The translations under genes and the position numbers were made by a program. A stretch of DNA of 52,415 bases, filler included, from Dimargaris cristalligena (Eukaryota), in NCBI GenBank assembly GCA_003614675.1. It is 2 parts of 2 records of this genome, joined end to end, with 100 filler letters (N's around TTAATTAATTAA, not from the genome) between each part and the next. Parts side by side here need not be neighbours in the genome. Positions count along the whole stretch, not along the records: positions 1 to 26,269 come from ML002546.1; 1 more part is not named here. One strand, given 5' to 3'. Within the stretch, counting starts at the first letter, position 1, and each line of letters starts with the position of its first letter. Below the pieces are notes generated by a model. That model was not told the DNA's origin. It saw nothing but the letters and a program-made list of their open reading frames with translations, and searched no databases. Of this stretch, positions 7,679 to 52,415 are shown piece after piece.

Positions 7679-8392
7679 ATGGCATTTTCATTTCGTTGGG
7701 TGGTCATCAGTGTTGCTCTGGTGTGCCTAAATACTTGGGTGCTGTGCGACCCAACACCGGCCGACAGTACACCGGCTCCAAAGGGTATTTTACGCCCACT
7801 CAACGCCGAACGGATCACTCCTGCGAAGACAGTTAAGTTTGCAGATAAAAAAATGGTTCTTTCTTTTAGAAAAGCTACACCAATCAACATGATTAAAGTG
7901 GATCCGACAATCGGCCCTGGGAATACAGCCAAGCCCGGTGCTAGCAGTAAAAGACTCGGGGCGCATAATCCACTGCACAAGTCTCCGCCGGTGGTATCAT
8001 CTAGACAGGTACCGCCGACAGGAACTGGTGGCTTATCCGAGCGTGGCACAAATGAACCTCACCCCCCATCCCGACTGCTTCAACATGCGGAGAAATATCA
8101 AGAGCGGCACAGCCAATCAGGGAACGGGGCACCCAAACCGATTGAACTGGAGCACCCATCTCAGATTTCGGTGAGTCCTAGTCATTTGCCAGTAGCTCTA
8201 ACGTCCTCAAAGTTCATGATTCGCCCTAAACCAACAGCCACTGCTGCCAACATTCCCCAGCTATTACGTACAAAATCCCGACTAAGCAGCTCAGGTCTGC
8301 GGCAGCCCAGTAGATTTGTGCGTCCAAGCCAAACCTGCCAGGTCACTAATCCCGCTGTCTCTGGTCATACCAAACGGTTCACCACTTCTTAA
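7679..8392 (+). CDS. Hypothetical secreted, basic, Pro/Ser-rich disordered protein with GILR and KTVKF (PP1-docking-like) motifs
   Basis: Single-exon ORF; hydrophobic N-terminus MAFSFRWVVISVALVCLNTWVLC; TATATAAA at 7502. Confidence 0.7.
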   Translation: MAFSFRWVVISVALVCLNTWVLCDPTPADSTPAPKGILRPLNAERITPAKTVKFADKKMVLSFRKATPINMIKVDPTIGPGNTAKPGASSKRLGAHNPLHKSPPVVSSRQVPPTGTGGLSERGTNEPHPPSRLLQHAEKYQERHSQSGNGAPKPIELEHPSQISVSPSHLPVALTSSKFMIRPKPTATAANIPQLLRTKSRLSSSGLRQPSRFVRPSQTCQVTNPAVSGHTKRFTTS

Positions 8393-13451: not shown

Positions 13452-15488
13452 TTAATTGCCCTTCGATCCAGGGGTGGACCCGCCACTGTTCGGATTATTT
13501 AAATTGCTCATGTTGTTGACGTTGGACGCCCCCGGATTCATCATGCCGTTCATCATGTTCATCGACATCATCGGGTTCATATTAAGCGGTAGACTCGTTG
13601 GGCTGTTGCCCCCTCCGAACATCGCCATAGGGAAATTCGGGTTTATACCCCCTTGTTGGGAGGTATAGCCTCCCCCCATGGGATGGCTGTGGGAATGGGA
13701 GTTGGCTCCGGCCGGATGACCGGCACTCATACCGGGGTGGCGATTAATCTGGGTGCCCATATTATTGAGGTTCATGGGCATCGAGAGGGCGGGATTAACT
13801 GCTGCATTCGAGGTACCGCCCATACCCAGGCCGAGATTGACCCCCGCCTGGGGATTTAAATTATAATTGGCACCCGAGCTCAGCATGTTGAGATTCATGC
13901 CCATACCCATGCCCATCGCCATGGCCATTTGGGGATTAATACCCGATGATTGCATTCCACCGGCTCCGGCATTCGCCGCCATAAGAGCCATACTGGCTAG
14001 CGCGGGATTCACGTTGCCCCCGCTGGAAATACCCATACCATTGGACATGGGCATACCACCCTGTTGCAGTTGCTGCATACGCATTTGGTGGAAATATAAT
14101 TGCTGGGCCTGTGAAAAGTTCATGAGGTTGGGCTGGCCCGAAGCAAGGGCCTGGGCTTGAATCTGGGCTTGTGCTTGGGCTTGGGACATAACCATGGTAT
14201 GGTGGCTGCCTAGAGGAGGGGCTGTGGATTGGATGGGCGCCGAAACGGTTGGAGACGAAAGGCCAAGGCTAAGGGGGCGCGGAGCGATTACACCCGGGCC
14301 TGATGCACTAACCGATACCGGGGTCGAGACTGAAGTCGAGGTGGGGTAGGGAGATGCGGTCGCCGAAGAGGGCTGTTGGGGTTCGGAGTTGATCGCGGGG
14401 GAGCCCATTTGACTGATGGGGGTGCCCACATTACTACCCCCCTGTTGGCTCACCTTGGGTGAAGCCACGGGGGGCTTATTCGCCTGGGCCGACAGGTGCA
14501 TCTGCAGTATTCGTTGGCGTTTCAATTCCTGTTCCACCAAAAAGTTGGGCCGACTGGGTTGGGGTTGGATATTTTGGGTCTGGAAGGGCGGCAGGGGAAC
14601 GAACTGTTGGATATCGAACGCGGGGCCGCCAGTACTAGTGGCCTGGGAGGAGCTGCCGAAATTGAGAATGAGCGGAGTATTTCCCGTTTCAGTGGGGGTG
14701 GCTGTAGCTAGTGGGGCCGGTTCGCCGGCGGCCGGAGCCCCGGAAGAAGTCGCGGGGCTTTCCACGAGCGGTGGGTCAATCACGCGACAGGTGGGGGGCA
14801 AGGTCAGTCGGGAATCCTCGGCAGTTGTCGCGGCCGGTTTGGCCGTGGAACCCCCAGGGGCCGTCGATTTGGTGGGCGATTGCAGGTTCGCTTCATTCGG
14901 GTCGACCCGAGCCGGGGCCGGTTGCAATTGCTCGAAGGCCGTCCGACTGTGTTCCAACATGGCGGGCAGGGCCCGTTTTTCTCTGGCTTGGAAATGGTGG
15001 ACCGCGTCGGTTAGGAGGGCCTGCAGTTTACGCCCTGCGGGGGTTTTGGGGGTGGGTAGGTCCGCCAAATTGGGTGCTTGGAGCATTTGGGTAGCTTCCC
15101 CTTGGGGATCGAGGGACCCAAGCGTCTGGGCCATGGCCGACGCGGCTGAGCCACGGTTACCGGCCGGGGCACCCCGCGAGTACGCGGGGGAAGACTCGGT
15201 GGTAGCTTCGGAGCGGCCGGACTGTGTACCAGCCGGCCCGGCCTGGAGGTCTGGATGGGCAGCTAGGGGCTGGGAAGTTTTCAGGTAATGGTCGGCGATG
15301 TTGGCTAAGTAAGCCAGATTGGATTGTAATCGGGCCTGATAAACGGCGAAATCGGGGTATTGGAACCAGCCGCGATTCTGGAATTCAATGCATACTTGAA
15401 TGAGTTCGGCGTTGATGTCCAGAACAAGTTGTACGCATTTAGCGTTGAATTCGGGAATGTAGGAGGTATCACCGACTGAAGCGACCAT
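13452..15488 (-). CDS. SSXT-domain (SS18/GIF family) protein with a long Q/M/G/N/P-rich low-complexity C-terminus
   Basis: VQLVLDINAELIQVCIEFQNRG...YQARLQSNLAYLANIAD matches the SSXT/SNH signature; 678-aa ORF. Confidence 0.85.
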   Translation of the reverse strand: MVASVGDTSYIPEFNAKCVQLVLDINAELIQVCIEFQNRGWFQYPDFAVYQARLQSNLAYLANIADHYLKTSQPLAAHPDLQAGPAGTQSGRSEATTESSPAYSRGAPAGNRGSAASAMAQTLGSLDPQGEATQMLQAPNLADLPTPKTPAGRKLQALLTDAVHHFQAREKRALPAMLEHSRTAFEQLQPAPARVDPNEANLQSPTKSTAPGGSTAKPAATTAEDSRLTLPPTCRVIDPPLVESPATSSGAPAAGEPAPLATATPTETGNTPLILNFGSSSQATSTGGPAFDIQQFVPLPPFQTQNIQPQPSRPNFLVEQELKRQRILQMHLSAQANKPPVASPKVSQQGGSNVGTPISQMGSPAINSEPQQPSSATASPYPTSTSVSTPVSVSASGPGVIAPRPLSLGLSSPTVSAPIQSTAPPLGSHHTMVMSQAQAQAQIQAQALASGQPNLMNFSQAQQLYFHQMRMQQLQQGGMPMSNGMGISSGGNVNPALASMALMAANAGAGGMQSSGINPQMAMAMGMGMGMNLNMLSSGANYNLNPQAGVNLGLGMGGTSNAAVNPALSMPMNLNNMGTQINRHPGMSAGHPAGANSHSHSHPMGGGYTSQQGGINPNFPMAMFGGGNSPTSLPLNMNPMMSMNMMNGMMNPGASNVNNMSNLNNPNSGGSTPGSKGN

Positions 15489-16953
15489 GGCGCTGGTATA
15501 AAGTCCTAAAAACTACACAGAGGAAAAGAGAAACGCGTGTGCTTGGCCGTAAAAATAGACAATACGAGGACTAGGTAGGCTATGGCTGGAAGACAAATGG
15601 AGGTGCTGTACAGGGCTGGGTGAATGAAGTCGTATATGCACGGTTAGGGGAAACCGAAGTGAGGAAGTAATATAGTGGAAGTGAAAAGATGTCCAAGAAG
15701 TAACGAATGAAGCTGGTGCACATGCGTAGGACTAAAAGGAATGTGCTATCTCTCTTGGGAAATTGGGTGGAAAATTGTTCCCCTGACTTGGAGACCTCCG
15801 CCTTAGCGAAAAGCCGATGTCCCACGTCCGAATGATCTGGGATTAATTTTCCGAATGTTAACGGTTCTTTGGCTAAATATGGTACCCGACAAATCGATGT
15901 AGTATTTCCTGGTCTCTAATAATTATCCCGATGTTGTGGGTATAATGCTGTGTTCTTATAGTCTATCAACCGTGGAAAGAAGCTGTAATACTCCAGAATT
16001 GACACTAAAGGGTGGTGTTCCTGGGGATGCTAATCCTAGATAGCGGTCAGTCTTGCCAGAGAAAGCAGATGAATAATAACCCACAGGAGTAAATACCAAG
16101 TGTGCCTACCAGCATTGGACACGTCGTAGTTCGGGGGTGGAGGTTGGGGGGTTATGGATAACGAAGATGAACCCCCCGAGTATTAGCAGCCCTTTAGCGT
16201 GGATGGGATGGCTAATAATAATATGGCTTGGTGGCATTTTACCTGTGGTGCCACTGCCAGACGTAAATAAGCCCCGCTTTTCCTGTCATCCTTAGGCGTC
16301 AGCTTGGCCAGAAGGAGCATGGTGTTCGAGTCTCACATCTTTCTAGCTAAAGCAGCCAAATGGGCTCCCCATTATCGTGGTTGTACTAAAGGCAATGAGT
16401 GTGATGGTCCTTGGTGGCGACGGTTTGTCCAACCCATTCAGCAGATGTTCATGATGGATGGGGGTTGTCACCTTATGATAGCCAGCAGCCCCACAATCCC
16501 AACCTAACCCTAATTCCAGTTGCACGCTAATAGAAAATGGCCTAAACGGGAATCTTGCTTAGTCTGAAATGCTGACCTGTTAAACAGGACTATGAATTGG
16601 GGGTTTCTATTTTGGTCCTTGACATGTAGCAGGGTCTGGAAATAAAGTGCGCGGTGGTTACTGGTGCGACACAGCCAACACGCCTCGGAAGACAGCACAA
16701 GTAGTCCATGCTATATTATGGATTCCATAATCCAAATCCAGGATAAAGTAGGAGCGCCGGGCTGCAGTCAGCCCTTTCCCTAGGCTATAAATACTGAAGC
16801 TATGAAGTCAATATACTGGATCATCTATCCAGCCCCCCCAGCCTTAGTCCCCCGCAGCGCCAGATATACCCTGACTATCGTTAGGTCCCATTCCGTATTA
16901 TTCCACCTGCCTCCCTTAGCCAGAGATTGATCTGGCGTGGTTTGTCATTCAAT

Positions 16954-18442
16954 ATGAAATGGCCTATTTTGTTCATCGCCCTGGTTACTACCCAGCTTAC
17001 CGTGGTCCGTGGGGCATCAATTCTCCTCCCGCCCATTTCAAAATTACCTGCTCGTCCTGCTATCACCATTGACCGAATAGCCGGAGAACTTCGCCAACAA
17101 ATCCAATGTTTTCTAAGCCTCAAAGACCTTTTGGAGCTGCGCAAGGCCTGTAAAGGGCGCCATGTCATTGTAGATTCAGTCTTGATAGATAAGGTAGGCC
17201 CGCCAACGTAACCAAACACACAGTAGAAGGACTGCTAGACCCTACCCCATGTAATCATACTTGAATCCACCAGCTATATCAAGAATTTTTTCTTGGACCA
17301 TTATTGATACGAATGGGCTACTAATATACGACATAGCCCACTCTATATTCGGTCGATTTGTTTAGGTGTTTACTCACTGGGATGACGCCATGTCCCTGAG
17401 CCGGTACATCTTTACGAACCAGGTCTACTGGGAGAGTTTTGCTCCTATTTGGTTTGCGGTAGCTCCCCTGGAAACCTGGGATTCCTGGTTCATAGATATT
17501 GACACCGGTCTCGGCTGGGCGTATGCGCACTGTGCGACAGCCGACTGTCAGCACGGCGGCGGTTCACAAACACGGGGTTATTGGAACCAGGCCACCGCCT
17601 TTGATCGATTTCTTGGAGCCAATCCGGTTCTGAAAGACCACCAGAGGGTCTACATATCCCTGGGCCAGCTTGGTCACGGCGATCTGCGGGCCGAATTTCC
17701 TTTTGTCTCTAAGTGTACCGGCTCGATCCTCAAGGACCTGCTGGTGATTTTGGGACATTCGATGAAATTAACAACCCTATCGTCGGTTTTACCTACCGAC
17801 CCCAGCCACTACCTCGACTTCGATCCGATCAAGGCCCACTTTGACTTAGCAAAAAGCATGGCGGGAGCTATTACAACCCTCCTAACAAGCAGCCTATGGC
17901 ACCTGCATCGTACCGACCAAGTCGAGCAAATCAGTCTCTATTTCCAAGAAGCCATCGGGGTGGTAAAAACAAGTCTCAATATCAATCCGATTGCCTACAT
18001 GTACCAATGTAAAACGCTCCATAACCTGGCCTACTTGGTCATGACCCTCGCGGCTATTAAGGGGGACCAAAAGGACTTCATTGATTCGATTATGGCCACC
18101 ATGGCTATATTGGATACCGAGACTCAACCGGACCCGGACATGGTGTTCAAGACCACTCGGGTGAACTATTTGCGAACACTCACTCTAAACCAGCTGCACA
18201 CCCCACTGGCCTACTTTCGATCCATATGGCCCGAGCTAAAGAACAAACCACTGGACCGGTACGAGCCTCTCGATTTCATAGACATGCAGAGGCAATGGCT
18301 GACCAACCAGGGAGACTTGCATCAAGCGGTACCCCTTGCGATGCTTCACGACCCCACCCGAGTATTGGCAATAGCCAAGGTTGATTTTCCACCGGGACAT
18401 GGCCAGGCCGACTATTCCTTCGCCAACCAATTCAAACTGTAG
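16954..18442 (+). CDS. Hypothetical secreted protein with an N-terminal F-box-like motif; exons 16954-17193 and 17366-18442 (438 aa)
   Basis: Signal peptide MKWPILFIALVTTQLTVVRG; IDRIAGELRQQIQCFLSLKDLLELRKACK; phase-0 GTAGGC..TTTAG intron; TATAAATA at 16786. Confidence 0.75.
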
Positions 18443-19549
18443 GGGTTGCATTTGATATCGAAAGAAGGTACAACAGTATCTAGTTCGTCAAAGTCATAAT
18501 TTGACAGTATTTTATCCATTGGACATGGCAACAGGGAAATAGAGACATATCACACTATTTGAACTCCGTCTGGATTCCTCGGATTAAGTCACACCTGTCC
18601 GTTTAAAGGTAGCGTGTGTTCTAATTAAATTTCATCAAACTATTTATAAGATAATATCAGACTGTAATTATATGCATAGGTGAGTAAATTGCAGTTTGTG
18701 TTTTACGCCGTAGGTTTTTAATGGATGAGGTACATCAATGTGCGGGCTTACAGTGCCAAATAACAACACCATTAGCCTAATACTAGCCCCATTGGCCTAT
18801 TTAAAAGCAGACCTTTAAATAAGGAAATAGTCGGCATTTTAATTAAAGGAATAGGGGAATAGTTCTTGCGGATTTTCAATATAGCTCAGAGGTGTCTACT
18901 TGGCATACCTAAATATCGCTTTGAGGGTCTGGCTTTAGGGTACCCTTACGGCTAATATTAAAACCTGCATCCCCCAACTAGCGGTGCTCACCACTATACG
19001 TAGCCCCCCCAATTCACTGTATGATCGACCACGACCATATCGCTAAAGGCATGGTTATTTGGGTCGGGTACCCTCTCGCCCAGCTTTGTGAAGCACAGTG
19101 TTTTCTCGGCAGATTCCCTCTTCCTTCCAACCAACGGGCTCGCGGGGAGAAGGGAAGTCCGCTGCTGGGTTGGACCAGTTAACCTCGCCGCCATAGGCCA
19201 AACCCTCCCAGCTCCAACCTATCCTTCCGCTCATCCGCATTCTTTACTTCTACGTTTTCCTCCCTTCTTTCCCCATTGTATAGTCAGTGCCCGTATTTCC
19301 CTAGTTACAGTGCCCACTATCGGCATCTTCGTAATTCCTTCCGCTTTAGTACTCATAGCAAGCTCCAGTCCTTTCTGTCCAGCACGTAAATGCACTCCTA
19401 TTTCACTGCCCACCACCCAACACCGCCTTTTTTTATTTTGTTATCTCCTCAGTTTCCCGCCCACCGCCAGGCCATTGTAGCTAGCCCGCGCCACCGCTTC
19501 CATACCTCCCTCGTTCCTGCGGTCGTCGACCTTACTCAAGACTAGGAGA

Positions 19550-21991
19550 ATGTCCAATGTCTTTCACAATGCCGAAGCCCAAAAGTACCTCGTCACAAAA
19601 CTGCCCCATACCGCGTTCAATGCCACCGATTTAGCCCAGTATGCGGGGGTTATCCCCGTCACCGAAAGTGGTGAAGGCGGCATATTTTTCTGGCTAATGT
19701 ACAACACCACCCTGATCCCGGATATCCGGGCCCCTCATAATCCGCACAAGAAACTCGTCGTTTGGTTTAACGGGGGACCTGGGTGTACCAGCTTGGACGG
19801 GGTGTTCCTAGAGAATGGCCCTTACCAGTTTACCGGTACCCCTGACAATATTCAAATCGTCCCCCGTGATTGGAGTTTCACCCAGCAGGCGGTTATGCTC
19901 TACGTGGACCAGCCCCTGGGTACGGGCTTCTCGTATGCGCCCGAAGAGGAGTACAGCACCCATTATGCCGACCTGACCTACCGGGTCTTCCGATTCCTGA
20001 CGGGGTTCTACGCGTTATTCCCCGAACTCGATCCTTTTGATATCTACTTGGCGGGCGAAAGTCAGGCCGGCGTGTACATCCCCTACATCGCCCAGGATAT
20101 GCTCCGGCGGTCCGACGCCAAGGTGGATGGTCATACGTTTGCCCTTAAAGGTCTTATGATCGGTAATGGCTGGCTAGACCCCCTGCCGCAGTACCGGGCC
20201 GTCCTGGATATGGCCCGGGCCCAGAACCTTCACCCACCCGCCGCGGAGGCCGCTATCCAGTCCCACCTCGACACTTGCGTCAGTGACTACTCACACAGCC
20301 CCCCGCGGATAATCAGTCACCAGTGCGAGGCCTACATCAACGAATTCATCAAACTGGCGGCCCCTGAACCAGGCAAATGCTATAATAATTTCGACTACCG
20401 GAAAGTTGACACGTACCCGGAGTGCGGCATGAATTGGCCGCCCCAAATCCACACCTTCACCGCCTATTTCCGCCTCCCGGCAGTGTGGAAAGCCCTCCAC
20501 GTCGATGGTCGGACTTGGTCCGATTGGTCCGAGTGTAATAACGCCGTGGGGACCCGCCTGGAAAATAGCCCCGATCGGCCCAGCATCGAAATCCTACCGA
20601 ATCTGCTAACCCGGTTGCCCGTTCTTCTAGTCCACGGTGACAAGGATCTGCTGTGTAACTATATGGGGGCCGAAAAGATGATTTCCCAATTGACCTGGGG
20701 CGGCCAGCAGGGGTTCATGCAAGGGGGCCTCCAGACTTGGCAGATTGATAGTGCCGACGTTGGTCTGTACCAATCCGAACGAAATCTCATATACGCTCGG
20801 CTTTTCGATGCTAGCCACATGGCAGGTGTAGATAAGCCCCTACCCATGTTCGACCTCCTTGTGCGGCTCACCGGAACGGATGTATCAACGCTTTCCTACA
20901 ATTCCATAGTTTTACCCGAGGTAAGCCGACTTCTCCCCCATCCCTTCTTTTTTTGTCGGGGGTTACCGCAGTAGCAGTCACATTGATTGAGACGTGGGTG
21001 GATTGGCCTCCGTCGGTATTTTTGCGGATTTTCTAATTTTTGTTAAGCCCTTCATCGCGTTTAATGGAGGGACGGTTATTGAATTGGGCATAGCTATTGC
21101 ATTGCTGAAGAGGAGTCATATTCACGACTCTCCTATTCAAGGAGGGCTCTCAAGGATATAATGGCTAATACCACCTCTGGTTTGTACGATCCACCTTAAA
21201 TATCGGGCCTATAGGTTCTTGACGTGAGTGGTCCTGTTACTCCCTCGTTGGCCCGAGGCACTCGCTTTGTGTAAGTATTTCAAATTTGTATCACAGCGAT
21301 GCACTGCCTGCTTTATTCCCCTCTCCTCCATGCTCTCCAACAAATACCACCTAGACTAACCACACCCACCTATTCGCTCCAACCCTCTGGTGTCCATACA
21401 TCTCTAGCCTGGGCAGTCTTATTGTCACCTGTATTATCCTTTTCGCATTCGCCTACGCCTTTATCCGGAAGGCCCGATACAAGCGGAAACACCCGGAAGA
21501 CTACCAGGAATACCACCAGATCGTTAACCCGATCGGCCTTAATGGGCTACCCCGTCTCAGTCAGGATATAGCTGAAGAGGAAATTCATATGACCCAACTT
21601 GGTATTTTTGGTCTTCCTATAACCGAGGAGCCTCTAAGTGACCATTACAACAAACCCACAGTTCGTATTTTTGATTACCAGAGGTAGGCTAGGAACCGTC
21701 GAACTCTTTAATGGTGGAACTGGGATTTTTTACTGTCCACCCCCGCATTAGCAGGCTGAGCCTGAATGGCGGATGTACATACCGTAGCCCCAGGGTATCT
21801 AACTGATTGTGTTTATTATCCACATGTGTAACCACTCCCCTTGCTCGATTCGTGGCTACGCTTCCAGTGATGGGTCGGGCGATGATCGCTCCGCACGTCG
21901 ACCCCTCCGCCCGGCAAACAAGCCCGCACGGGCCAAGTCGAAGCAGCCACCCAAGTCCAAGAAGGCGCGTGGTAAACGACCTGACATATGA
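19550..21991 (+). CDS. KEX1: Kex1-like serine carboxypeptidase (S10) with a C-terminal TM helix; exons approx. 19550-20920, 21215-21270, 21408-21683, 21868-21991
   Basis: WFNGGPGCTSLDG, VDQPLGTGFS, GESQAG, GDKDLLCN, ASHM; ECGMNWP motif; TM segment LGSLIVTCIILFAFAYAFI followed by RKAR. Confidence 0.85.
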
Positions 21992-23083: not shown

Positions 23084-24086
23084 GGTTAGAGAGTGAGATG
23101 TATGGATTAGGTATAAAGGAAAAGTGGGAGGGGGATGAGGGACTTGAAGGGAATCGCAGCCGCACAATGGAAAAAAGGATACACCGTCTGTTAGTGAAAT
23201 TCCGAATGAAAAGACTCAAGAAAATCAGGATTAGATGCAGGAAGGAGAAGTGAGCGTGGGTCTTCCGCTGCGGGGCGGTTCAAAGTGAGGTCAATAACCC
23301 TCTTGGGCAGCTAGCCACTGACTAGCGGAGGTTCTTCCAGGTGCCGACTGGTGCACCTACAGCTAGAAGATGAAGGTGATGAATATCACTCCCATTCATC
23401 AATTATCCCCGCACTAGAGTCCTCTCTGAAGGCTAGTCTAACACTACCCTTTAGTATTTTGGGTATGGTGCTAGAGGCATTGAATTTATTCCAAGGCTTA
23501 ATTCGACTATAAGTGAACCCGGCTGAGCACCATTAACCTGGGCGTATATTTTGAAAGAGTTGCCTAATCACCACCACAAATATCCGTAGCCCGATATATA
23601 AACCCAAGCCAAAGAATGGTGGGCCACAGGACTCGGAAGGCCAATAGGGCCAATCACGTGAAGCTCTACCAACTCCATCTGGGGGAAGGGCGCACATTGA
23701 CTTCTCTTGGCTTTGCTCTTCACTTACTTAATGCCAACTTTCCCATTATACTACAGCAAAAGTGGGCTGAGGAAGAGGTGGAGGAGTGGGGAGTTCAGCC
23801 TAATTGTATATGTGCATATATGTAACAGTTTCTACTATGCGGTATTACGAAGGCTTGAATGGAGTGGATGGGCAAGGAAGTGAACAGGCGGAACCTACGT
23901 AGATGAGCTTCATTCCTCCCTCTGCATCTCTTTAACTATATACTAATACTATAAGGTTCGCGTTTTTTTTTATTAACGCCGAGACCTTCATGGCCCCACC
24001 TCATTCTCCCGGCTAATAGTTTTCCTTTGGTTTGACCGCTGCCCATCTAAGTCTGGTCCGAACGTTTCGCCACCCCCTCCCCGCAT

Positions 24087-26269
24087 ATGCCGATGGAGGA
24101 GAAAACGCCCACCCCGCCCGCTTCGCCCCCGGCTTCCCCATCCGCTGGCTCTACCGCAGGCGATGGCCCATGTCCCGACCCCGTTTCGCCGCCAAGGGAG
24201 GATGGCCCATGTCCCGACCCCGTTTCGTCGCCAAGGGAGGATGGCCCATGTCCCGAACCTGTTTCGCCGCCAAGGGGGGATGACCCGGCCCCTCCTCTCC
24301 CATCGGACACTATTTCGGACAGCAACAATAACGACGACAACAATAATAACAACAGCAGTAGTGGCGAGGGTAGTAGCAGTAGCGAGAGTAGTAGTAAAAG
24401 CAGCAGTAAAGCGACCTCCTCAGCCCCCAGTGACTCGGGCTGGTTCTCCCTATGGGACCACATTCAAGCCGAGCTGGACCTCAAAGAGTACGATAGTCTC
24501 ATGGACGTACAGCACGAGCGGGTCAGTAATTTTCTGCAAATTCCACGCCAGGTGGAAAAATTGATGATATTCGGGGTCTTTGTTGCCCTGGACGCCTTCC
24601 TCTACCTATTCACTATATTGCCCGCCCGGATTGCCCTCACTCTATGGACCATTGCCCGGCGCCCCTTTCTGCCTTCCGACCACATTCTCCGCCAACGCCG
24701 TGCCTGGCTATTCCCCAGTCAGCGGTGTGACCTCATGAAGGGATTCCTTATCCTGGTATGCTGCCTCATGCTACAGTCATTCGACTCGGCCCAGCTCTAC
24801 CATATGGTCCGGGGCCAGTCCACCATTAAGGTCTACGTCATTTTCAACATGCTCGAAGTCTTCGATCGGCTGTGCTCTGCATTCGGCCGGGACATTTTGG
24901 ATACTCTGTTATCCGAGATTTCGTTTTATCCCCAGGCATGGGAACAACAGCCCGATCAGCAGTGGCGACGGTTCGGTCAAATTGTGCAGCACACCGTTAT
25001 CGCCATAATCTATATGTTTATTCACGCCATGGTCCTCTTCTACTACCTGGTTACCCTCAATGTCACCATTAACTCCTACGACTATTCCCTGCTTACGCTC
25101 CTACTAAGTAACCAGTTCGCCGAAATCAAATCCAATGTTTTTAAGCGGTACGAAAAGGAAAACCTGTTCCAAATTTGCTGTTCCGATATCGTCGAGCGGT
25201 TCCAGATTGGTATTATGCTCACCATCATTACTCTGAAAAATTGGATTGAATTGTCATCAGGAACCATCCAGGCCGATACCGGCTTCTCCCAAATTGCGCT
25301 CCCCTTTTCCTTTTCGCCCGTACCCCTTCCTTGGTCCTGGGAGTGGCAAACCCTGGTGGTGGGCCTATGGACCTGGCTGCGGTACATGGTGTTCGACTGG
25401 TGGTTCGACTGCCTGGTCCTCCTGCTCGACTGCCTGCCTATCCCACTCGGTCCGTTTAGCACTGGGGTGCCGTCCAACCCCCACCGGGCCAGTCAAGCCA
25501 TCGCTCTATTCATGCGGAACCTATTTGATTTCCGACAAGCATGGGCCATTCTTACCCGAGTCTTAACCCCGGCCCTGCTGGTCTACTGCTCCGAAATGTT
25601 GGCCGATTGGACCAAACACGCCTTTATCACCAAATTCAACCAGGTGCGGCCCGAGGTCTACGGTCGCTACACCGATATTCTCTGCCGCGACTTAGTCGGT
25701 ATCGACCAGAATAACCCCAGCCCGACGCGGTCATCAGCAGCCGAACCTTCGTCTCGCCCCCCGGCTAATCAACACCGGATACGGATCGAGCGCTCCTTGG
25801 CTGTCGGTAACCGAATGGGCCTGGCCACCCTTCCCCTAGCCTGCATTGTAATCCACAACTCCATCCATATTCTCCGGATGGTGTTCCAGTCAGACCCTAG
25901 TAACAATAATGGTCTAGGGGACGAACTCGACCACGTAACCCCTCCACTGGACGGGGGGTTAGCGTCACCCCTCTTTTATGAATGGGTTGGTCTGGATTTG
26001 CACCACCACAGCTACCTATTCTCCCCCCTTTTAGCCGTCGTGGAATACGGGGGCTGGGTGCTCTTGGCCATGATGGCCTACGCCTGTTTGGTGTTTATTA
26101 AGCTACTCCTCGGCATTAACCTGGTTCAGTATGCCTGGAACCGGTACGAAGGCCTCCAGAATCGGCAGCGGGAAGAGGAGGAGAGGACCCGCACCTCCAT
26201 CTCCCGGGCCGAGGCTCGGCGGGAATGGTCCCAACTGCAAAAAGACGTGAGCCATTCCGACAAAAAATT
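24087..26269 (+). CDS. TAPT1: TAPT1/Emp65 (DUF747) ER membrane protein, 3' end truncated at the contig end
   Basis: ERVSNFLQIP..VEKLMIFG, YHMVRGQSTIKVYVIFNMLEVFDRLC, LLLSNQFAEIKSNVFK, SDIVERFQ, DWTKHAFITKFN. Confidence 0.92.
24162..24278 (+). repeat. Coding tandem repeat, 39 bp x3 (DGPCPDPVSPPRE)
   Basis: Near-identical units start at 24162, 24201 and 24240 (gatggcccatgtcccga...ccaaggg). Confidence 0.95.
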
Positions 26270-26369
26270 NNNNNNNNNNNNNNNNNNNNNNNNNNNNNNN
26301 NNNNNNNNNNNNNTTAATTAATTAANNNNNNNNNNNNNNNNNNNNNNNNNNNNNNNNNNNNNNNNNNNN
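26270..26369. other. Artificial contig-joining spacer
   Basis: 44 N + TTAATTAATTAA (stops in all six frames) + 44 N = exactly 100 nt. Confidence 0.95.
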
Positions 26370-28104: not shown

Positions 28105-29800
28105 AACTATATAACCAAAGGTGGCTTTATTAGAAATCGTAAATCAGAAATTGCAATGTGGTATCAAAGGGTACGGGAAATTCGGTAGTATAAATGCCTG
28201 TAAAATTGCCATCCGAATTATTCACTGGATTCGGTTTTGTCACAGCATTCCCAGAAACAAGGATTAAAGGTAGTGCAAAAGCATGAGAAACAGTCGCTGA
28301 TACCCTTCCCAATCTCATTAAGAGCAGCGGACATACAAAAGCATGGGCAGCAAAGTAGGTTTTGGACAGGATTATCTGATGGACAGCATGCAGCACAGTC
28401 ATCGGATGCACCAGCATCATCATCGTCATCATCGCGTCGGAAAAGTTTGGGGGCCTGGTTCTCGGTTGACGGGGCGATAATGGTTTTATCCACTTGGGGA
28501 GTCAGGGTTTCTCGCAGATATTCGGCAAACCCAGCCAAGTTGGGAGTAGTCTCTCCGGAATTGGCCTGTGCGCCAGTCAGGGAGAGGTGGTCCCGCACAA
28601 ACGACTTCATGGCAGCCTTGAGGGTTTCGCAGTCAGTATTGGCCGTTTTGACGATTTCCAGGATTTCTTGAACTTCGGGCATACGGTTCTCGCAGGACAC
28701 CTTGGGGCAGGCGCTGGCGACCGGGAAGAGCGGCTGAATACCAGGAGCGGCGCCTAAACTAGCGGAAAATACCGCGGGTACAGCCAGGGCCAAGAGGCCA
28801 ACAGCGAACAACTGCATGGCAGGCAAAGTGATATTATTGGTAACGGGGTTAGACGTGGGGTCAAAAAAGAACCGGTGAGAGGGGAAGAGAAAAGTGAATT
28901 GAAGCAACTCAATAATCGCGTGAGTAGTGGAGAAAGGATTCGTATTTTGCAAATGATATTTTCCGGTAGCAGGTATAGAGGCCATTTATATATCTCTGTG
29001 AGGAACCAAATGGGGAGTGTAGTTTCAATAACCACTCGCCTGGTCCTATCTCCCTACTTTTCAATCTATTGAAGCATTGCAATCAATACCGGGGACTAGT
29101 TGATGGCTTCGATGGTAGAGTAATACCCAGAAAATAGTGTAACAGCTCGTCAAAAAAGAGCTTGGAAGTCCATTCTCCCTAATAAACCAAGCCAACACAA
29201 TCGGTATCTTTCCCCCTTTCCCGATGGCACCACTGCTCTAGCTGGGGTTTCAAAAAAAATCATAACATGACCATAGTAATTTGGTAATTACCTACCGCGC
29301 CTTGTCCGTCGACTGTCCAAGAGGTTCCCCAACCAGCCAGTCCATAAAGTAAACAGCCTCCAGGGAAATGTATAAAGACTGTTCTCAGCTGTTGGACCAT
29401 CCCGTTTTGTTATCACAATTCTGCCCGAAATGATGCACAAGTCCAACCGAGAGGGTGAATTGGGGAAAACGGCCAGGCTCCTTCAATTATTTGAGCACGC
29501 GCCTAGTTCGCCGCTTTAGGCCTTTCTTTATATTTCTCAAATGGTGGAACTACTTGCCGATACTAGCCAGCCATAGAGTGTGTTGGCCAACCCCTGTCTG
29601 GACTCCTTTTCATATCACAGTGCCTTCCAGTTAGTAGTAACACAATTTTCGGACCGCATGGCTTTTGTTAGAGCCAGCATGTGTCCATGTTGGACAAAAA
29701 TCAAATATGCAGACGAGCATATTGTATTCGGCCTGGGTCTTATTATGATGAGTTTCCCTCCATTTGCCGCGAGAACTATTTATCTCTAGTCCACATCAGC
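28105..29800. repeat. Tandem segmental duplication unit A (paralogous to ~33085-34785), covering the gene and ~1 kb of upstream sequence
   Basis: Long colinear identity, e.g. ccatagtaatttggtaattacctaccgcgc vs ccatagtaattcggtaattacttaccgcgc; weaker similarity resumes at ~31115-31440 vs ~34787-35080. Confidence 0.9.
28218..28817 (-). CDS. Secreted prepro-protein with a Cys-rich C-terminal peptide (copy A)
   Basis: Signal peptide MQLFAVGLLALAVPAVFSA; pro-region ends KLFRR; acidic tail with 13 Cys; TATA box at 28985-28992. Confidence 0.85.
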   Translation of the reverse strand: MQLFAVGLLALAVPAVFSASLGAAPGIQPLFPVASACPKVSCENRMPEVQEILEIVKTANTDCETLKAAMKSFVRDHLSLTGAQANSGETTPNLAGFAEYLRETLTPQVDKTIIAPSTENQAPKLFRRDDDDDDAGASDDCAACCPSDNPVQNLLCCPCFCMSAALNEIGKGISDCFSCFCTTFNPCFWECCDKTESSE

Positions 29801-33197: not shown

Positions 33198-33803
33198 TTA
33201 TTCACTGGGTTCAATGGATTCGGTGCTGTCAGGCTCTTCACATATGCAACAATTAAAATTATTGCAGAAAGATGATAAACATTCCCCTAAACCATTCAAA
33301 CACTGATAAATCATATAGGACATACAGAGGCATGGGAAGCAAAGGCAGTTTTCGACAGGATCGCCTAATGTGCAGCACGGTGCACATTCCTCAGGTACAC
33401 TAGCACTATCATTATCATCACGTCGGAAAAGTTTGGAGGCCCGATTCTCAGTTGACGGGGCGATAATGGTGGTATCCACTTGGGGAATCAAGGTTCCACG
33501 CAGATAGTCGGCAAAACCGGCCAAGTTGGGAGTAGTCTCTCCAACATTGGCGTGTGCGCCAGTCAGGGAGAGGTGGTCCCGCACAAACAACTTCATGGAA
33601 GCCTTGAAGGTTTCGCAGTCAGTATTGGCCGTTTTGACGATTTCCAGGATTTCTTGAACTTCGGGCATACGGTTCTCGCAGGACACCTTGGGGCAGGCGC
33701 TGGCGACCGGGAAGAGCGGCTGAATACCAGGAGCGGCACCCACACTAGCGGAAAGTACCATGGGTACCGCCAGGGCCAGGATGCCAACGGTGAACAGCTT
33801 CAT
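33198..33803 (-). CDS. Secreted prepro-protein with a Cys-rich C-terminal peptide (copy B)
   Basis: Signal peptide MKLFTVGILALAVPMVLSA; pro-region nearly identical to copy A, ending KLFRR; divergent tail with 13 Cys; TATA box at 33971-33978. Confidence 0.85.
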   Translation of the reverse strand: MKLFTVGILALAVPMVLSASVGAAPGIQPLFPVASACPKVSCENRMPEVQEILEIVKTANTDCETFKASMKLFVRDHLSLTGAHANVGETTPNLAGFADYLRGTLIPQVDTTIIAPSTENRASKLFRRDDNDSASVPEECAPCCTLGDPVENCLCFPCLCMSYMIYQCLNGLGECLSSFCNNFNCCICEEPDSTESIEPSE

Positions 33804-36049
33804 GGCAGGCAAAGTGATATTATTGGTAACGGGGTTAGACGTGGGGTCAAAAAAGAACCGGTGAGGGTGGAAGACGGAAGTGAGTTGAAGCAACTCAGTA
33901 ATCGGGTAAGTGGTGAAGAACGTATTGTAATTGTGCGAATGACATTCTCTGGTAGCGGGCATAGAGGTCATTTATATACATCTATAGGAAACTAAATGGG
34001 GGTGTAGTTTCAATAACCACCCACTTCACCTCATCTCCCTACTTTTCCGTCTATTGAAGCAGTGTATTTCATAACAGTGGTTAGCTGATGACCCCGATTG
34101 GAGTATTATCCCCCAAAAAATGTGTAACAACCCTCCTAAAAAGGGCTCGGAAGTTGATTCATATGAATTGCCGAACCAGCACATTTGATCCCTTCACTCC
34201 ATTATCGATGGATCCACTGTACTAGCTGGGCTATCCGATCGGAACTAGATACTTACATAGCCATAGTAATTCGGTAATTACTTACCGCGCTTTGTCCGTC
34301 GACTGCCCAAGAGTTTCCCCAACCGATCAATCCATAGCGGAAATAGTTTATAGGAAGTGGATAATTACTGGCCTCAGTTGTTGGATCATCCCATGATGGC
34401 ATCACAAGTTCACCTTAAGCGATACACATGTCCGACTGAGGGGGTGAATTGGGGGATACGGCTAGGTTTCTTCGATTATCAGAACATGCGGCTAGCTCAC
34501 CGCATTAAGCCTTTCTTAACATTTTTTAAAAGGCGGGAGTACTTGCCGGTACTAGCCAGCCAGAGAGGGTGTTGGTCAACTCCTGTCCGAACTCCTTTTC
34601 ATACCACAATGTCTTCCAACAAGTAGTAACACAATTTCTTGACCATATGGGATTTGTTAGGGCCAGCATGTGCCTTCGTAGGACAAAAAAATTAATACGG
34701 ATGAGAATATTGTATCCGGTATGGACTTTATTATGAAAAACTTCCCCCAGTTTGTTGCGAGAACGATATCTCTAGTTCACATTAGTGTATTGCCATGAGG
34801 CGGGCACCAATTGGCTTCGAATATCCGGCTATCAGTTCTGCTGATAGTCATGATGACAATCGATGGATATCGATTAATTGGATGTTGACTAATTTTTTTC
34901 AAGGAAATGTCGATTCTGGTGGATATTTACAAGCCATTGGTTAGTCTCTGCCCCGATTTTTGTTTTCAATACCGCTCCAATCATCATATACTACTAATTT
35001 TATAATGTCTTTTTGAATTGTAGAATGTAATTCAATTATTTACAAAAATTATTTTGGAATTTCTATTTGAGAGCCCTCTTAGAGACAGATAGTGACGATC
35101 TGCGTATATCTGTTCTTTCATTTTTTGATTCATCATCCTACTTCAATGATTGTTAATCCAACTAAATATTTTACAAATCGGCACATTCCTATTGTTTACG
35201 AATTATTTCTATAGTTCGATTGCTATCCTGTCTCACCTACCCCATATTTCTTCTTTTCCAGCCAACGTCGTTCTCTCTGCTGGCCAGGCTACGCCCTCGT
35301 CGATGCCAGTTTGCCCTGTACCAGAGCCCGCGAATCCCAATCCCATCCCCCAACTTGGCGCCATAGGAAATGATCCAGGCGGCCACACGTAGGCTGCCCC
35401 TACCGCCAAGTTTTATTAAGTTTGTGGGTGTGGGTACATACACGTTTGGCCATCCCAACCACTGGTGGCACTACTTTTTAATTGTATTGTTCATGGTGGC
35501 GGAGAGGTTCAAACCTCGGCCAGTTTGGTCATCTACAACTAGTCCAAAAAATAGTTGTGTTGCAGTTAAAGAGGCATTTTCGCTGAGTCAGTCGATATAA
35601 TATATCACCGCACCTGGTACAGCAGTAGGAAGGTAGTGCCCCAAAGCAAGGCCCTGTTAAGCTGTAGGATCCGCTGATTCAGTTTACCACGCAGTAGATT
35701 TAACACCACAGATTTTGGGCACTAATGGAGGTGCACTAAGCAAGATTCAATAGTGGTTTAATAATTGTCCACCACATCCGAATCCTACGAAGGCCTCTCC
35801 CAGCAATGCGATTTTACTATTCTATGAGAAGATATCAGTGTTAGTGAAGGAAAAAATAGTCAGAATTGCCTAGGTTCAAGATTACTGTCGATTGCACTAA
35901 ATAAATTGAGCCAAACTCATTTTTATAAATACATGAGTAGGTCAAGGCATTTTTTTATTGGTATTCTTTGTTCTGTCTGTTGGTTGTCCGCTTAACTTTC
36001 GGCCGATGCCCCATCCTCCTCAATCCTTCAGGTCCGCCATTAATCCTCC

Positions 36050-38482: not shown

Positions 38483-39508
38483 ATGTCTTTTCAACTCCTC
38501 TTACGCGATTTATTTACTATTGTCTTTAGTGGGGTTCTACTTATAAATATTTCTACCTGCGCGGTACTTTCCAATCCACACCCTGATTCGACGTTGCCTG
38601 CCAACATCTCCGATTATTTGCGAGTCTACGGTGGTCAGGCTGTTTCTGAGGGCTATCCCTTTTTGGCCCGTGTAGTATCACTTGGCCCTCAAAACACCCT
38701 CTGTTCCGGCAGTGTTCTGAATCAGCACTGGATTCTAACCGCTGCCCATTGCGTAACCCAATGCTCCCAACCATATGATTGGTACGGTGAGTGCAGGGTA
38801 AGCGACCCTGGGTTCACTTACGTCACGGTTGGCACTTCCGACCCACGTACCACCACTATCTTCAACGCCTCCCAAATTATCGTTCACCCCGACTACCATA
38901 CCGATCAAGCACCCGAGGCCGATATCGCAGTCATCCAGCTTCGGACCCCCCTCACGTATTCAAAAGAAGTCCAACCTATCAAAATCTACACCGGTCAGAT
39001 TGCTGATAATGCCGCTGCCCAAGTTATCGGTTGGGGCCAAATCGAAGAGGGCCAGTCACCCACTGCGTCAGCCCCCTACGAAGCGGATATACGGATGTCT
39101 AATGACCGCCAACTTTGTAATGTTGTTGAAGGCTTGAACTTCCAGAACTCGAATGGGCCTCTCATCTGTTCGGCCAAAGACAACTACAAAGGTCCGTGTT
39201 TGGGGGATTCCGGGGGTCCTCTTCTGGGGCGATACCAAGAGACGTGGGCTCAACTCGGAATTACCAGCTTCGGCACCAACCCAGGGACCAATATCACCTG
39301 TGATAGTCCCAACAAAACCTCCTATTTTACACACGTGGCCTATTTCCTGGATTTTGTACTCAATGCCACTAGGCTCGGCCACGATGAAATAGTATTAACC
39401 ACCAATGGTGTCGGTCGTCTGGTTGAAATGCAGTCAAGTGTAATATTTATCTCATTTTTCTTTTCCATCTTTACTGCCAATGTTTTGTTTACCAATGTAT
39501 TTCTATAG
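38483..39508 (+). CDS. Secreted S1A (trypsin-fold) serine protease with a hydrophobic C-terminal tail (possible GPI signal)
   Basis: Signal peptide; R|VYGG activation site; TAAHC, DIAVI, GDSGGP; tail SVIFISFFFSIFTANVLF; TATAAATA at 38286. Confidence 0.95.
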   Translation: MSFQLLLRDLFTIVFSGVLLINISTCAVLSNPHPDSTLPANISDYLRVYGGQAVSEGYPFLARVVSLGPQNTLCSGSVLNQHWILTAAHCVTQCSQPYDWYGECRVSDPGFTYVTVGTSDPRTTTIFNASQIIVHPDYHTDQAPEADIAVIQLRTPLTYSKEVQPIKIYTGQIADNAAAQVIGWGQIEEGQSPTASAPYEADIRMSNDRQLCNVVEGLNFQNSNGPLICSAKDNYKGPCLGDSGGPLLGRYQETWAQLGITSFGTNPGTNITCDSPNKTSYFTHVAYFLDFVLNATRLGHDEIVLTTNGVGRLVEMQSSVIFISFFFSIFTANVLFTNVFL

Positions 39509-42600: not shown

Positions 42601-43887
42601 CAATAAGGTTGGGGCACAATTGCCTGGCCCGCCCCACCACCATTCCATTAGAGACTCCCGCGGCACGAGCCTCGTAGTTACACGAGGCGATATCACTCGA
42701 TGAGGCCTCCGATGGATTCTGGCAATGGCTAACGGCCACGGGTTTACCTCGAAGGTCGGGTCTGGAGCGTAGCCCCACTGCCACAAAAAAGCAGTCAAAG
42801 TCAACGTACATGATACATCTTCGACCGGATGCCCTGGCTGATCCGGTGGATTCGCTTGTGAGTCCCCGTTGGCGACGAAGTTCTATGACATAGTTCTGGA
42901 GTTCAATTTTAAAGGTGGACAGGTGGTGTAGGCGGGAAGAAGCGTAATAGTTCTGGATAAAGTTGGCATCGGTGGAGCGATGGTTGGGGGGACCAGGTTG
43001 GGGCACTTTATGGGTCGGGTATGGATCAGCCAAAGACCGGTCACCCTCGGGGTTCTGAAGCAGTGGTTGGACTGTGCCTAGTTCAAGGTCGCCCAGGCTA
43101 TTATCACTCGCCCTCGAGGCCTCTGGTTCTTTCCAGTGAGAGGACAGTGTCCCTTTGGTTGGTATCCGCATGCTGTCTAGTGGATAGTTTTTCCAGGGTA
43201 GGGCCTGGTTAGCTGCAATACTCTCTAACAACCATGCTGGGGTTACAATTCGGTAGTCAGTCCGCTGGCCCCATTCTTTCACTTTGGTGGGCGTTAACTG
43301 CGTGGCGATGATATAAGTGGGCCGATCAGACGGGGTTAGGTGATGAATATACTCGCCCCCGTGGAGAAATACCAAATGTCGGATTTCAAAGTTAGAAGGC
43401 TGAGTGTACCCAGTGACGTATACGCGAATACCTTGAAGAACAACTATAATTTCCGGGAACCCATCAACGGGTTGGATACGAATTTTCAGTCGTGAGAGAA
43501 TACTAGTTGGTAAGAATCCGATTAATCAACGCATAAGCAACAGTTACTTGATATTATAGCATAGTATGACAAGCATCCGTGAGGGCAGCCAGCCAAGTGA
43601 AGGGTCAGGGGAGTATTGCCTATGTAGTAAGCGATAATCCGGCGATAGCGTTAGCCTCATGGAATGAGGTCCGCCAAGTGGGAAGGGCTTGTAGGAGCAG
43701 GTTCATTCAGGCAATGCATGGGTGCGAGAATAGCTTCCCGTCACTTACAAGAGATGCGCTGCCTAGATTCAGAAGAATCTCTACCCGATGGGGAGTCTGC
43801 GTCGAAGATGGTCTGGATTTGCTCCCCTTGCTGTTGCAACTTGCGTCGCTTGTCGCCCATGTAGTCACGAAAGGTGTACTCAGCCAT
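39692..43887 (-). CDS. REV1: DNA repair protein Rev1 (BRCT, Y-family polymerase, UBM-like motifs, C-terminal domain), multi-exon; 3' exon boundaries approximate
   Basis: FRDYMGDKRRKLQQQ; BRCT VYVTGYTQP..HGGEY; YYASSRLHHLS; YVDFDCFFVAV; IASCNYEAR; KHLGHGLCD; CTD ITEWV...PIPEDVEDFTNYL..DMERV and a final exon WIDALRGCFEKINQKTKSIYG. Confidence 0.95.
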
Positions 43888-51960: not shown

Positions 51961-52185
51961 ATGAAGGTATCTTCTATTGGGTGTGTCCTTATATTCATTG
52001 CACTGGTACTTTTGGTGCCATCAACTAGCAATGACGCTAAAGTCAAAGACCTTGCCAACATGCCATATGAAATACAGGAACAGGTTCTGAAAGAAATTCC
52101 TATCAAAACACTGTATGCCAGTGCCACAGCTAACTCCAAATGATGGGATATGATACTGTTATATAGGCACACCACAGTGGACTCG
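51961..52185 (+). pseudogene. Decayed secreted F-box-like gene (exon 1 with an internal TGA), lying just upstream of an LTR-like insertion
   Basis: MKVSSIGCVLIFIALVLLVPSTS + LANMPYEIQEQVLKEIPIKTLYASATANSK*WDMILL...S|gtaagt; the region is CpG-depleted. Confidence 0.6.
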
Positions 52186-52361
52186 GTAAGTACCCCTGTC
52201 ATATATAAGTAGATTCCCCCATTCTGCATGCTATTGGGAAGCGAGTTGGGTAAGAGCAAAGACACGCATTAAAATGTGGGGTGATGGTTCTTACCTGGTT
52301 ATTCCAGTTTATTCTAGCTTACTGGGGAGTAGCATTGTTACTTTGGGAATAGTATAGCCAG

Positions 52362-52415
52362 TGTAAAGAACTGAAATCAAATCCTTGAAAACTGAACTTT
52401 ATTTGAAAAGATAGT
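52362..52415 (+). mobile_element. Start of an LTR-like element (TGTAAAGAAC...), same family as 1-70; the contig ends inside it
   Basis: 52/53 identity to the reverse complement of 18-70. Confidence 0.6.

Follow-up and report, generated by a model that had tools for sequence, protein, structure and literature searches.

A putative secreted protein family of the mycoparasite Dimargaris cristalligena that combines signal-peptide-like leaders with a TPR-like solenoid and, in four members, an F-box-like segment

We analysed a 52-kb stretch of DNA from Dimargaris cristalligena (positions 1 to 52415, hereafter the window), with the focus on a gene at 16954-18442 (plus strand) whose product, the database protein P0001, joins a signal-peptide-like leader, a degenerate F-box-like segment and a large all-helical domain. 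The reading that we favour, tentatively and at somewhat below even confidence, is that P0001 belongs to a secreted, effector-type family derived from an F-box protein, and that it possibly acts as an adaptor docking on the Skp1 of the host and thereby on the host Skp1-cullin-F-box (SCF) ubiquitin ligase. An effector role is proposed because this is a one-species, expanded, fast-diverging, signal-bearing, cysteine-poor, helical-repeat family of a haustorial biotroph, and the role is placed on the host side because F-boxes are known to function only beside Skp1, in the cytosol or nucleus, and a protein routed through the endoplasmic reticulum (ER) cannot meet the Skp1 of its own producer. According to the available parts of two sources, the Dimargaritales parasitise Mucoromycota and some Ascomycota by means of an appressorium and a biotrophic haustorium (PMC9866270), and D. 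cristalligena was sequenced within a set of 'biotrophic mycoparasites' (PMC6784888). Its hosts are fungi, and neither humans nor animals nor crop plants.

Gene model and predicted product

The features of the gene were as follows.

16786-16793, plus strand: TATA-box-like element TATAAATA, about 160 nucleotides upstream of the ATG, read from the sequence
16954-17193, plus strand: exon 1, 80 codons, ATG at 16954, which encodes the signal-peptide-like leader and the larger part of the F-box-like segment
16954-17013, plus strand: signal-peptide-like leader MKWPILFIALVTTQLTVVRG, residues 1-20, candidate cleavage site after G20
17068-17154, plus strand: F-box-like motif IDRIAGELRQQIQCFLSLKDLLELRKACK, residues 39-67
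17194-17365, plus strand: intron, 172 nucleotides, GTAGGC...TTTAG, phase 0
17366-18442, plus strand: exon 2, 358 codons and TAG, encoding the family-defining all-helical solenoid

The in-frame join of exon 1 and exon 2 yielded 438 amino acids identical to P0001, tblastn with P0001 gave 100% across both exons, and P0042, an independent annotation from a second D. cristalligena assembly, follows the same 438-residue model with 435 of 438 residues identical. The gene coordinates proposed in an earlier note on this DNA were correct, and the predicted splicing of exon 1 to position 17366 reproduces P0001. We accept this splice model because its signals are canonical, the two annotations agree and paralogues carry the same modules within one protein; and since the leader and the F-box-like motif share one exon and one open reading frame (ORF), their adjacency is independent of splicing. 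The ATG at 16954 has an A at -3 and is the sole ATG in the exon 1 ORF, which opens at 16885, and an upstream ATG was noticed at 16803, belonging to a short ORF with its stop at 16930. Judged from the sequence, 16954-18442 is a real two-exon gene of D. cristalligena, and the window is eukaryotic DNA with a guanine-plus-cytosine (GC) content of 38 to 57% in 2-kb windows.

P0001 is labelled 'hypothetical protein' at NCBI and 'F-box domain-containing protein' in UniRef. The three differences between the strains represented by P0001 and P0042 (D126G, L218Q and A242E) all lie in the C-terminal solenoid domain, and the N-terminal 125 residues are identical in these two strains, a very small sample.

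A paralogue family built on a helical solenoid

In an exhaustive HMMER search, 1.84 billion representatives yielded 24 matches at E ≤ 1e-3: P0001 itself, 18 relatives that matched across the whole domain (E 1.9e-34 to 2e-4) and, besides these, 5 proteins with TPR repeats. All 18 relatives came from D. cristalligena, where they were present in one or both assemblies, and they were 18-28% identical to P0001 in the family alignment (A1), with the shared solenoid motifs W..LAPLETWD, N.RV.I.L, FPL, LW.LY, W.P and Y.LT..G.L.Q.VPSA. The guess that a family exists, made from a second gene in the window, was thus borne out by 18 further paralogue clusters, by signal-like N-termini in 14 of the 19 models and by the recurrence of the leader-plus-motif layout in paralogues. 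Word-indexed protein searches found only P0001 itself, both with exon 2 and with the profile of alignment A1 (8000 scored candidates), and the family profile had no match among PDB sequences at E ≤ 10. The restriction to one species is among the points that speak for an effector, and it is weakened in that role by the fact that it may only reflect missing protein sets of other Dimargaritales.

The domain of about 360 amino acids downstream of the motif (residues ~85-438), which the earlier note had not recognised, indeed matched no Pfam family even at E ≤ 10, and P0001 likewise matched none of the Pfam TPR families at that threshold. When AlphaFold2 (AF2) was run with the family alignment, the mean predicted local distance difference test score (pLDDT) was 83 and the predicted template modelling score (pTM) 0.82, with residues 75-438 mostly above a pLDDT of 90, and residues ~85-438 were modelled as a solenoid made up of helices apart from a small beta hairpin near 390-403; a run without an alignment was unusable (pLDDT 34), and the structure searches used the family-alignment model. 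A Foldseek search of the PDB found no match at E ≤ 0.001; the closest was an armadillo repeat (E 0.044, template modelling score (TM) 0.14). An exhaustive structural scan returned generic helical repeats only, its best match being a designed repeat protein at Z 8.0, which is noise level for helical proteins, followed by HEAT, ARM, TOG and Not1 at Z 5-7, also within the stated noise for such proteins; F-box, Lcp and alginate-lyase chains were absent from the best 50 structural matches. Residues 238-340 showed 5 weak library matches to TPR_12/TPR_10-rich proteins (E 9.5e-7 to 3.7e-4). In view of these matches and the model, 'TPR-like solenoid' of a new family is the most apt description of the C-terminal domain.

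Two UniRef names attached to family members were tried and rejected, namely MpaB/Lcp oxygenase (PF09995; P0031 and P0032) and alginate lyase (P0036), each of which was matched by 0 of 19 members at E ≤ 1. The members contain 0-6 cysteines each, often an odd number, with no invariant cysteine, and such a low and unconserved content would fit a reducing cytoplasm better than an extracellular site. As a separate observation, Lys/Arg-rich tails follow the solenoid in P0031, P0038, P0040, P0032, P0011 and P0026 (for example ...SRKKKLSQYFRRIFRISK and ...RLIQASKKK) and are lacking in P0001; they might be nuclear-localisation, membrane-binding or uptake signals.

Signal-like leaders at the N-terminus

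The leader of P0001 consists of MK, then WPILFIALVTTQLTVV, then RG, and is followed by AS, giving a basic n-region (K2), an uncharged core of 16 residues and, at -3/-1, V-R-G. The proposal of a cleavable-looking signal peptide held up in that this n/h/c layout is present in the predicted leader and recurs across the family, where hydrophobic leaders start 14 of the 19 best models and the other five look N-terminally truncated or differently started. Lys or Arg precedes the core in 11 of these 14 leaders, mostly as MK or MR at positions 1-2, which favours an N-in orientation, so that the part C-terminal to the leader would lie in the ER lumen or outside. Most of the hydrophobic cores have 10-16 residues, short for a membrane span, and a small-x-small site, admittedly a weak criterion, follows the core in 14 of 14.

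The same N-termini bear on a different explanation, which we regard as improbable, in which P0001 is an endogenous F-box receptor of the parasite's own SCF, possibly membrane-tethered, and its N-terminus is an uncleaved anchor or is not translated as modelled. Such a receptor would work where Skp1 is found, and hydropathy leaves room for it at the expense of secretion: the maximum 19-residue Kyte-Doolittle mean of the P0001 leader is 1.72, which an uncleaved anchor fits too, 6 of 14 family leaders are at or over the classic 1.6 (8 of 14 are under it), the leader of the second gene (at 51961) has a 19-residue mean of 2.56, in the membrane-helix range, and the measure cannot tell a cleaved signal from a membrane anchor. 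Also in keeping with it, the P0001 core is followed by a stretch rich in Pro and by the basic residues R19, K30 and R34, and 5 of the 19 models are without a leader. The 5' end of the gene model is a predicted one, and in the main text of the genome paper (PMC6784888) the term 'transcriptom' is absent, which counts against our reading as regards both splicing and expression. Points against a cytosolic receptor are the Lys or Arg in front of 11 of 14 cores, an orientation that puts the body in the lumen, the mostly short cores, and the small-x-small sites. A fast-evolving expansion within one species would moreover be uncommon among housekeeping receptors, although some lineages do have expanded F-box families.

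Beside these features, a proline at column ~41 of alignment A1, about 8-10 residues past the leader, was present in at least 70% of the family; it could belong to a cleavage or maturation context, or be an alignment effect.

An F-box-like segment between leader and solenoid

The motif IDRIAGELRQQIQCFLSLKDLLELRKACK was present exactly as the earlier note had quoted it, at residues 39-67 and close behind the leader, and the likely third helix of the segment continues to about residue 85, across the intron. The segment thus lies N-terminal to the helical solenoid, as in F-box substrate receptors. A hallmark of F-boxes is Leu-Pro (LP) at the start of helix 1, and the lack of a canonical LP, remarked on beforehand, is real, P0001 having I42-A43 there; at this position P0040 has LP, P0033 IP and P0027 FP. 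The pattern of the second and third helices is well retained in P0001 (DLLELRKACK). Comparable segments were found in P0040 (LPPEIHSKIFSYIGED), P0033 (IPLEILDQILSYSSKD) and P0027 (FPPEVFRNMFSHVDK / FPPEVFRNMFSHVDKVKLVELRQ), and in all four proteins the segment stands 70-76 residues ahead of the APLE.WD motif, with a hydrophobic-Pro-x-E-hydrophobic start at a shared position in the three paralogues.

In a tree inferred from the columns of the solenoid alone, the median terminal branch was 1.07 changes per site and the four F-box-bearing paralogues were scattered, so that four changes are needed, at least three of them forced by well-supported branches; the F-box label was no more clustered on this tree than in 500 of 500 shuffles. 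On the simplest reading of this scatter, the F-box-like segment looks ancestral to the family and would have been lost in most lineages.

Two model-based approaches pointed to an F-box. With residues 30-95 as query, the feature clusters listed by the ESM Atlas were all named F-box (0.93, 0.87, 0.85...) and all but one of them carried a Pfam F-box family, exactly the family that had been proposed beforehand, out of thousands. The top match shares 133 of 256 features, which is the range of chance matches or distant relatives, and in calibration a score of 0.9 is attained by shuffled proteins in 4-10 of 100 cases, and a third of the shuffled proteins show ten concordant families. The structure rows of the Atlas for the same residues were F-box proteins in 10 of 10 cases (TM 0.58-0.66), which for a low-confidence model of a short stretch means little. 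A co-folding with Skp1, for which the earlier note had suggested AlphaFold-Multimer and the host protein, was run with ESMFold2 on residues 33-90 and a fungal-type Skp1, an ORF (L055) from metagenome contigs that matches Pfam Skp1 at 6.9e-31, and it came out as 'weak support', with a score of 0.56 (runs 0.61, 0.54 and 0.56) against 0.02 for the best of 3 controls, agreement between runs in at least 77% of contacts and a partner pLDDT of at least 54. In calibration, 51 of 78 solved complexes attain the mark used here, as do 2 of 108 mismatched pairs; the passes at ≤ 0.60 comprise just 5 of the 78 solved complexes and every one of the 4 mismatches (of 180) that passed. Since solved Skp1/F-box complexes exist, such a pass is to be read as likeness to an F-box and not as binding. 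Weighing these results against the negative ones below, we estimate that the segment probably descends from an F-box, and that this copy, in P0001, may still bind a Skp1, with the balance leaning somewhat against it.

A considerable body of results weighs against the F-box part of the proposal. P0001 carries IA in place of LP, and in several F-box proteins a change of LP to AA does away with the binding of Skp1. The hidden Markov model (HMM) check with PF00646 and PF12937, for which membership means a score at or above the gathering cutoff, was negative, since neither the whole of P0001 nor its 58-residue segment matched a Pfam family at E ≤ 10; PF12937 was touched by just 1 of the 19 family members (E 0.1), and the isolated segment of P0040 reached 16.1 bits where the cutoff is 24.3, its match extending over profile positions 2-17 of 47, the first helix only. 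The UniRef name 'F-box domain-containing', given to P0001 and P0040, is thus a source label that the profile searches did not reproduce. Among PDB sequences, the P0001 segment had 2 matches (E ~0.6), both herpesvirus ICP27 and neither of them an F-box protein, a profile of the four segments had 2 matches, neither of them an F-box protein, and the P0040 segment had 0. In a leave-one-out test, an HMM of the three paralogue segments was run against 1024 ORFs of the window, and exon 1 was not among the matches listed (to E ~35); the ORF of the second gene, at 51961, scored E 24. The AF2 model with the family alignment has helices at 39-53, 56-66 and 75-83, with a pLDDT of 36-51 over residues 37-72. 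In 15 of the 19 paralogues no F-box motif is recognisable. Finally, the Atlas and co-fold signals are not independent, since both come from ESM-type models. The F-box claim of the earlier note is thus weakly supported: it has on its side the Atlas look-alikes, the weak Skp1 co-fold and the UniRef name, and against it the Pfam and PDB searches, the leave-one-out test, the AF2 confidence and the IA in place of LP.

In a further explanation, the segment would not be an F-box at all; it would be a chance look-alike, an amphipathic helix pair that caps the solenoid or forms a linker, and its UniRef name would stem from a borderline profile match. This explanation agrees with the failure of all HMM-based tests, with the modest feature overlap in the Atlas and the rate at which shuffled proteins score as high, and with the low confidence of the three AF2 helices. 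We nonetheless consider it quite unlikely: the Atlas singled out, among thousands, the very family proposed beforehand, three paralogues begin the segment in the same way at the same position, the co-fold scored far above its controls, and the segment has the usual position of an F-box, on the N-terminal side of a repeat domain.

Another possibility, to which we give clearly more weight while still judging it unlikely, is that the family is secreted and the F-box of P0001 is a dead relic, so that the solenoid alone would serve as a binder, an inhibitor or a decoy, outside cells or in the host. Consistent with this, P0001 has IA at the place of the LP and is without a Pfam F-box match, and the family evidently functions without the motif, since most members lack a recognisable one and several show apparent decayed remnants at the motif columns (LPPKRF, WPTKLY, IPSKEV), which may be MAFFT artefacts. 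The weak co-fold pass may reflect a memory of solved complexes, and F-boxes are also missing from some members of the Hessian fly SSGP-71 family, according to the available part of PMC4617103. Against a relic, however, the motif has been kept in four deeply separated lineages with branches of about one change per site, which argues for selection, and the helix 2 and helix 3 pattern of P0001 is well preserved. In the same direction, the two strains differ only in the solenoid and not in the N-terminal 125 residues, albeit in a very small sample, and the Atlas look-alikes and the co-fold point to F-box likeness.

Proposed origin and mode of action

In the effector reading that we favour, the most likely origin of the family would be an ancestral F-box substrate-receptor protein that acquired a signal peptide. 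The resulting layout would be an N-terminal secretion signal, a variable linker and an all-helical TPR-like solenoid of about 350 residues, with four deep-branching paralogues, P0001 included, retaining a degenerate F-box in the linker and the others having lost it. The protein would be exported from the parasite and enter the host hypha at the haustorial interface, where the solenoid would bind a host protein, and copies with a competent F-box would dock on host Skp1, leading the host SCF ligase to ubiquitinate the bound target. Cleavage, secretion, host entry, Skp1 binding and the target itself are steps that we infer, and the papers searched contained no localisation or interaction data. 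A more specific version of this account, in which a captured cytosolic F-box/TPR-like receptor gave rise to a haustorial effector family of about 19 members whose F-box-bearing copies redirect the host SCF and whose other copies act as decoys or inhibitors of the same targets, is, in our estimate, fairly unlikely to hold in full.

The second gene and neighbouring genes

51961-52188, plus strand: first exon-like ORF of the second gene, in which the hydrophobic leader MKVSSIGCVLIFIALVLLVPSTS precedes an F-box-like motif; the gene continues past the end of the window at 52415

The second gene had been described as sharing the layout of the first. A leader and a motif do stand together in one exon, the leader being followed by MPYEIQEQVLKEIPIKTLYASATANSK; an in-frame TGA (52141-52143), however, immediately precedes WDMIL, and the window ends before the gene does, so that only this part of the description holds. 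A GTAAGT donor is present at 52186. The second gene had no Pfam F-box match and, read through with X at the stop, 0 PDB sequence matches; a word-indexed search for longer proteins with its 60 N-terminal residues found nothing at E ≤ 10 and no annotated protein with this N-terminus, and its leader starts none of the 18 family clusters. The second gene may be a pseudogene.

The window is rich in genes with export-signal-like starts. In its AT-rich part (GC 0.38-0.45), two closely similar ORFs about 5 kb apart, at 28218-28985 and 33198-33971 (both minus strand), match no Pfam family; in each, a signal-like stretch (MQLFAVGLLALAVPAVFSAS / MKLFTVGILALAVPMVLSAS) comes after an internal Met, and the C-terminal tail is rich in Cys. 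The pair has the look of a tandem duplication of a small, secreted protein with many cysteines. An ORF at 44509-45369 (minus strand), also without a Pfam family, opens with the signal-like MKINVGIAALLVTVLASQAQA and continues in long Gly/Asp/His-rich repeats (GGDGGDGGHGGNS...), and a Pro/Ser-rich ORF at 7679-8392 (plus strand) has the signal-like start MAFSFRWVVISVALVCLNTWVLC. Two proteases are encoded on the plus strand, an S10 serine carboxypeptidase at 19481-20974 (PF00450, 1.4e-78) and a trypsin-family protease with a hydrophobic N-terminus at 38483-39508 (PF00089, 8.8e-30). The housekeeping neighbours are an SSXT-domain protein (13452-15512, minus strand), a DUF747 membrane protein (24051-26321, plus strand), a Rev1/Y-family DNA polymerase with BRCT (40847-43525, minus strand) and Nop14 (47476-50478, minus strand), and the candidate effector genes therefore lie among ordinary genes and not on an isolated island. 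Outside the window, a metagenome contig (locus L046) showed seven tandem exact matches to a Skp1-motif pattern at 952-1433 with a spacing of 76 nucleotides, a repeat unrelated to P0001.

Significance and relation to known systems

To our knowledge, the effector biology of fungus-on-fungus biotrophs is almost unexplored. F-box-mimic proteins are known from viruses, among other sources. As matters stand, P0001 is a clearly delimited computational candidate whose F-box stays below the profile thresholds. If our reading is right, no earlier F-box-mimic effector family would be known from a fungus, or as acting between two fungi, and a known strategy would appear in a new kingdom pairing with a new target-binding domain; the family would also offer, in residues 39-85, a defined module whose host partner, Skp1, is highly conserved, and paralogues with and without the F-box for comparison. 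If it is wrong, the work still defines an unannotated, signal-bearing solenoid family and shows that the label 'F-box domain-containing' rests on a sub-threshold match.

Our literature searches yielded no report linking Dimargaris with F-box proteins and none of secreted fungal F-box effectors. In the main text of the genome paper (PMC6784888) the terms 'effector', 'secret' and 'F-box' are absent, and 'Dimargaris' and 'F-box' are absent from that of a study of zygomycete secretomes (PMC9391592), whose supplementary tables, like those of PMC6784888 and PMC9866270, may list the protein. The F-box proteins mentioned in the available parts of PMC8146833, PMC11051474 and PMC11040782 are host or housekeeping proteins and not secreted fungal ones. 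Pathogen proteins that mimic F-boxes and redirect host ubiquitination are known from bacteria and from one insect, as far as the accessible text of PMC4617103 goes.

The insect is the Hessian fly (Mayetiola destructor), whose SSGP-71 proteins are effectors with an F-box and leucine-rich repeats (LRRs) that interact with host Skp, some members being without an F-box (same part of PMC4617103). The two families are alike in belonging to a eukaryotic parasite, in their large lineage-specific expansion, in the N-terminal F-box, in Dimargaris an F-box-like segment, followed by C-terminal repeats and in having members that lack the F-box, and the repeat domain of SSGP-71 is expected to pick the host target, as we propose for the Dimargaris solenoid. 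SSGP-71 effectors carry a signal peptide. The two families differ in that an insect attacks a plant with LRR proteins, whereas in Dimargaris a fungus attacks a fungus, with a new all-helical TPR-like solenoid for which there is no Pfam family; and SSGP-71 proteins interact with host Skp, whereas the Dimargaris F-box lies under the HMM thresholds and its Skp binding is putative.

Among bacterial systems, the Ralstonia effector RipG7 binds Arabidopsis SKP1-like proteins and needs its F-box for virulence, according to the accessible text of PMC4617103. The RipG/GALA type III effectors resemble the proposed role of the Dimargaris protein in bringing a pathogen F-box protein into the host SCF, with a repeat domain for the choice of target, which for Dimargaris is a proposal. 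They differ in being bacterial and injected by secretion machines, whereas the Dimargaris protein is eukaryotic and has a putative ER-type signal, and they have no sequence relationship to the Dimargaris solenoid. Agrobacterium VirF and Legionella AnkB are bacterial F-box effectors of the same kind, and the F-boxes of RipG/GALA, VirF and AnkB are recognisable to domain models, which that of Dimargaris is not.

An N-terminal F-box with a C-terminal helical-repeat domain is the standard layout of substrate receptors, and cytosolic receptors of the F-box/TPR type, such as the plant F-box/TPR_27 clusters, share with P0001 the order of F-box and helical repeats. F-box/TPR_27 clusters were indeed the Atlas look-alikes of the whole protein, at 0.75-0.78, which is within the chance range. 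Unlike the Dimargaris family with its putative signal peptides, which is so far confined to one species and has mostly lost the F-box, these receptors have no signal peptide, and none of them showed a significant sequence or structure match to P0001. The oomycete WY/LWY effectors, finally, likewise combine a signal peptide, in Dimargaris a putative one, with a large, all-helical, cysteine-poor and fast-evolving paralogue family in a haustorium-forming parasite, and an effector complex (9j5i_D) was among the generic structural matches at Z 5.5, the noise level for helical repeats; they share no motifs with the Dimargaris family, in which no RXLR-type motif was seen, and the likeness is therefore one of kind and not of family.

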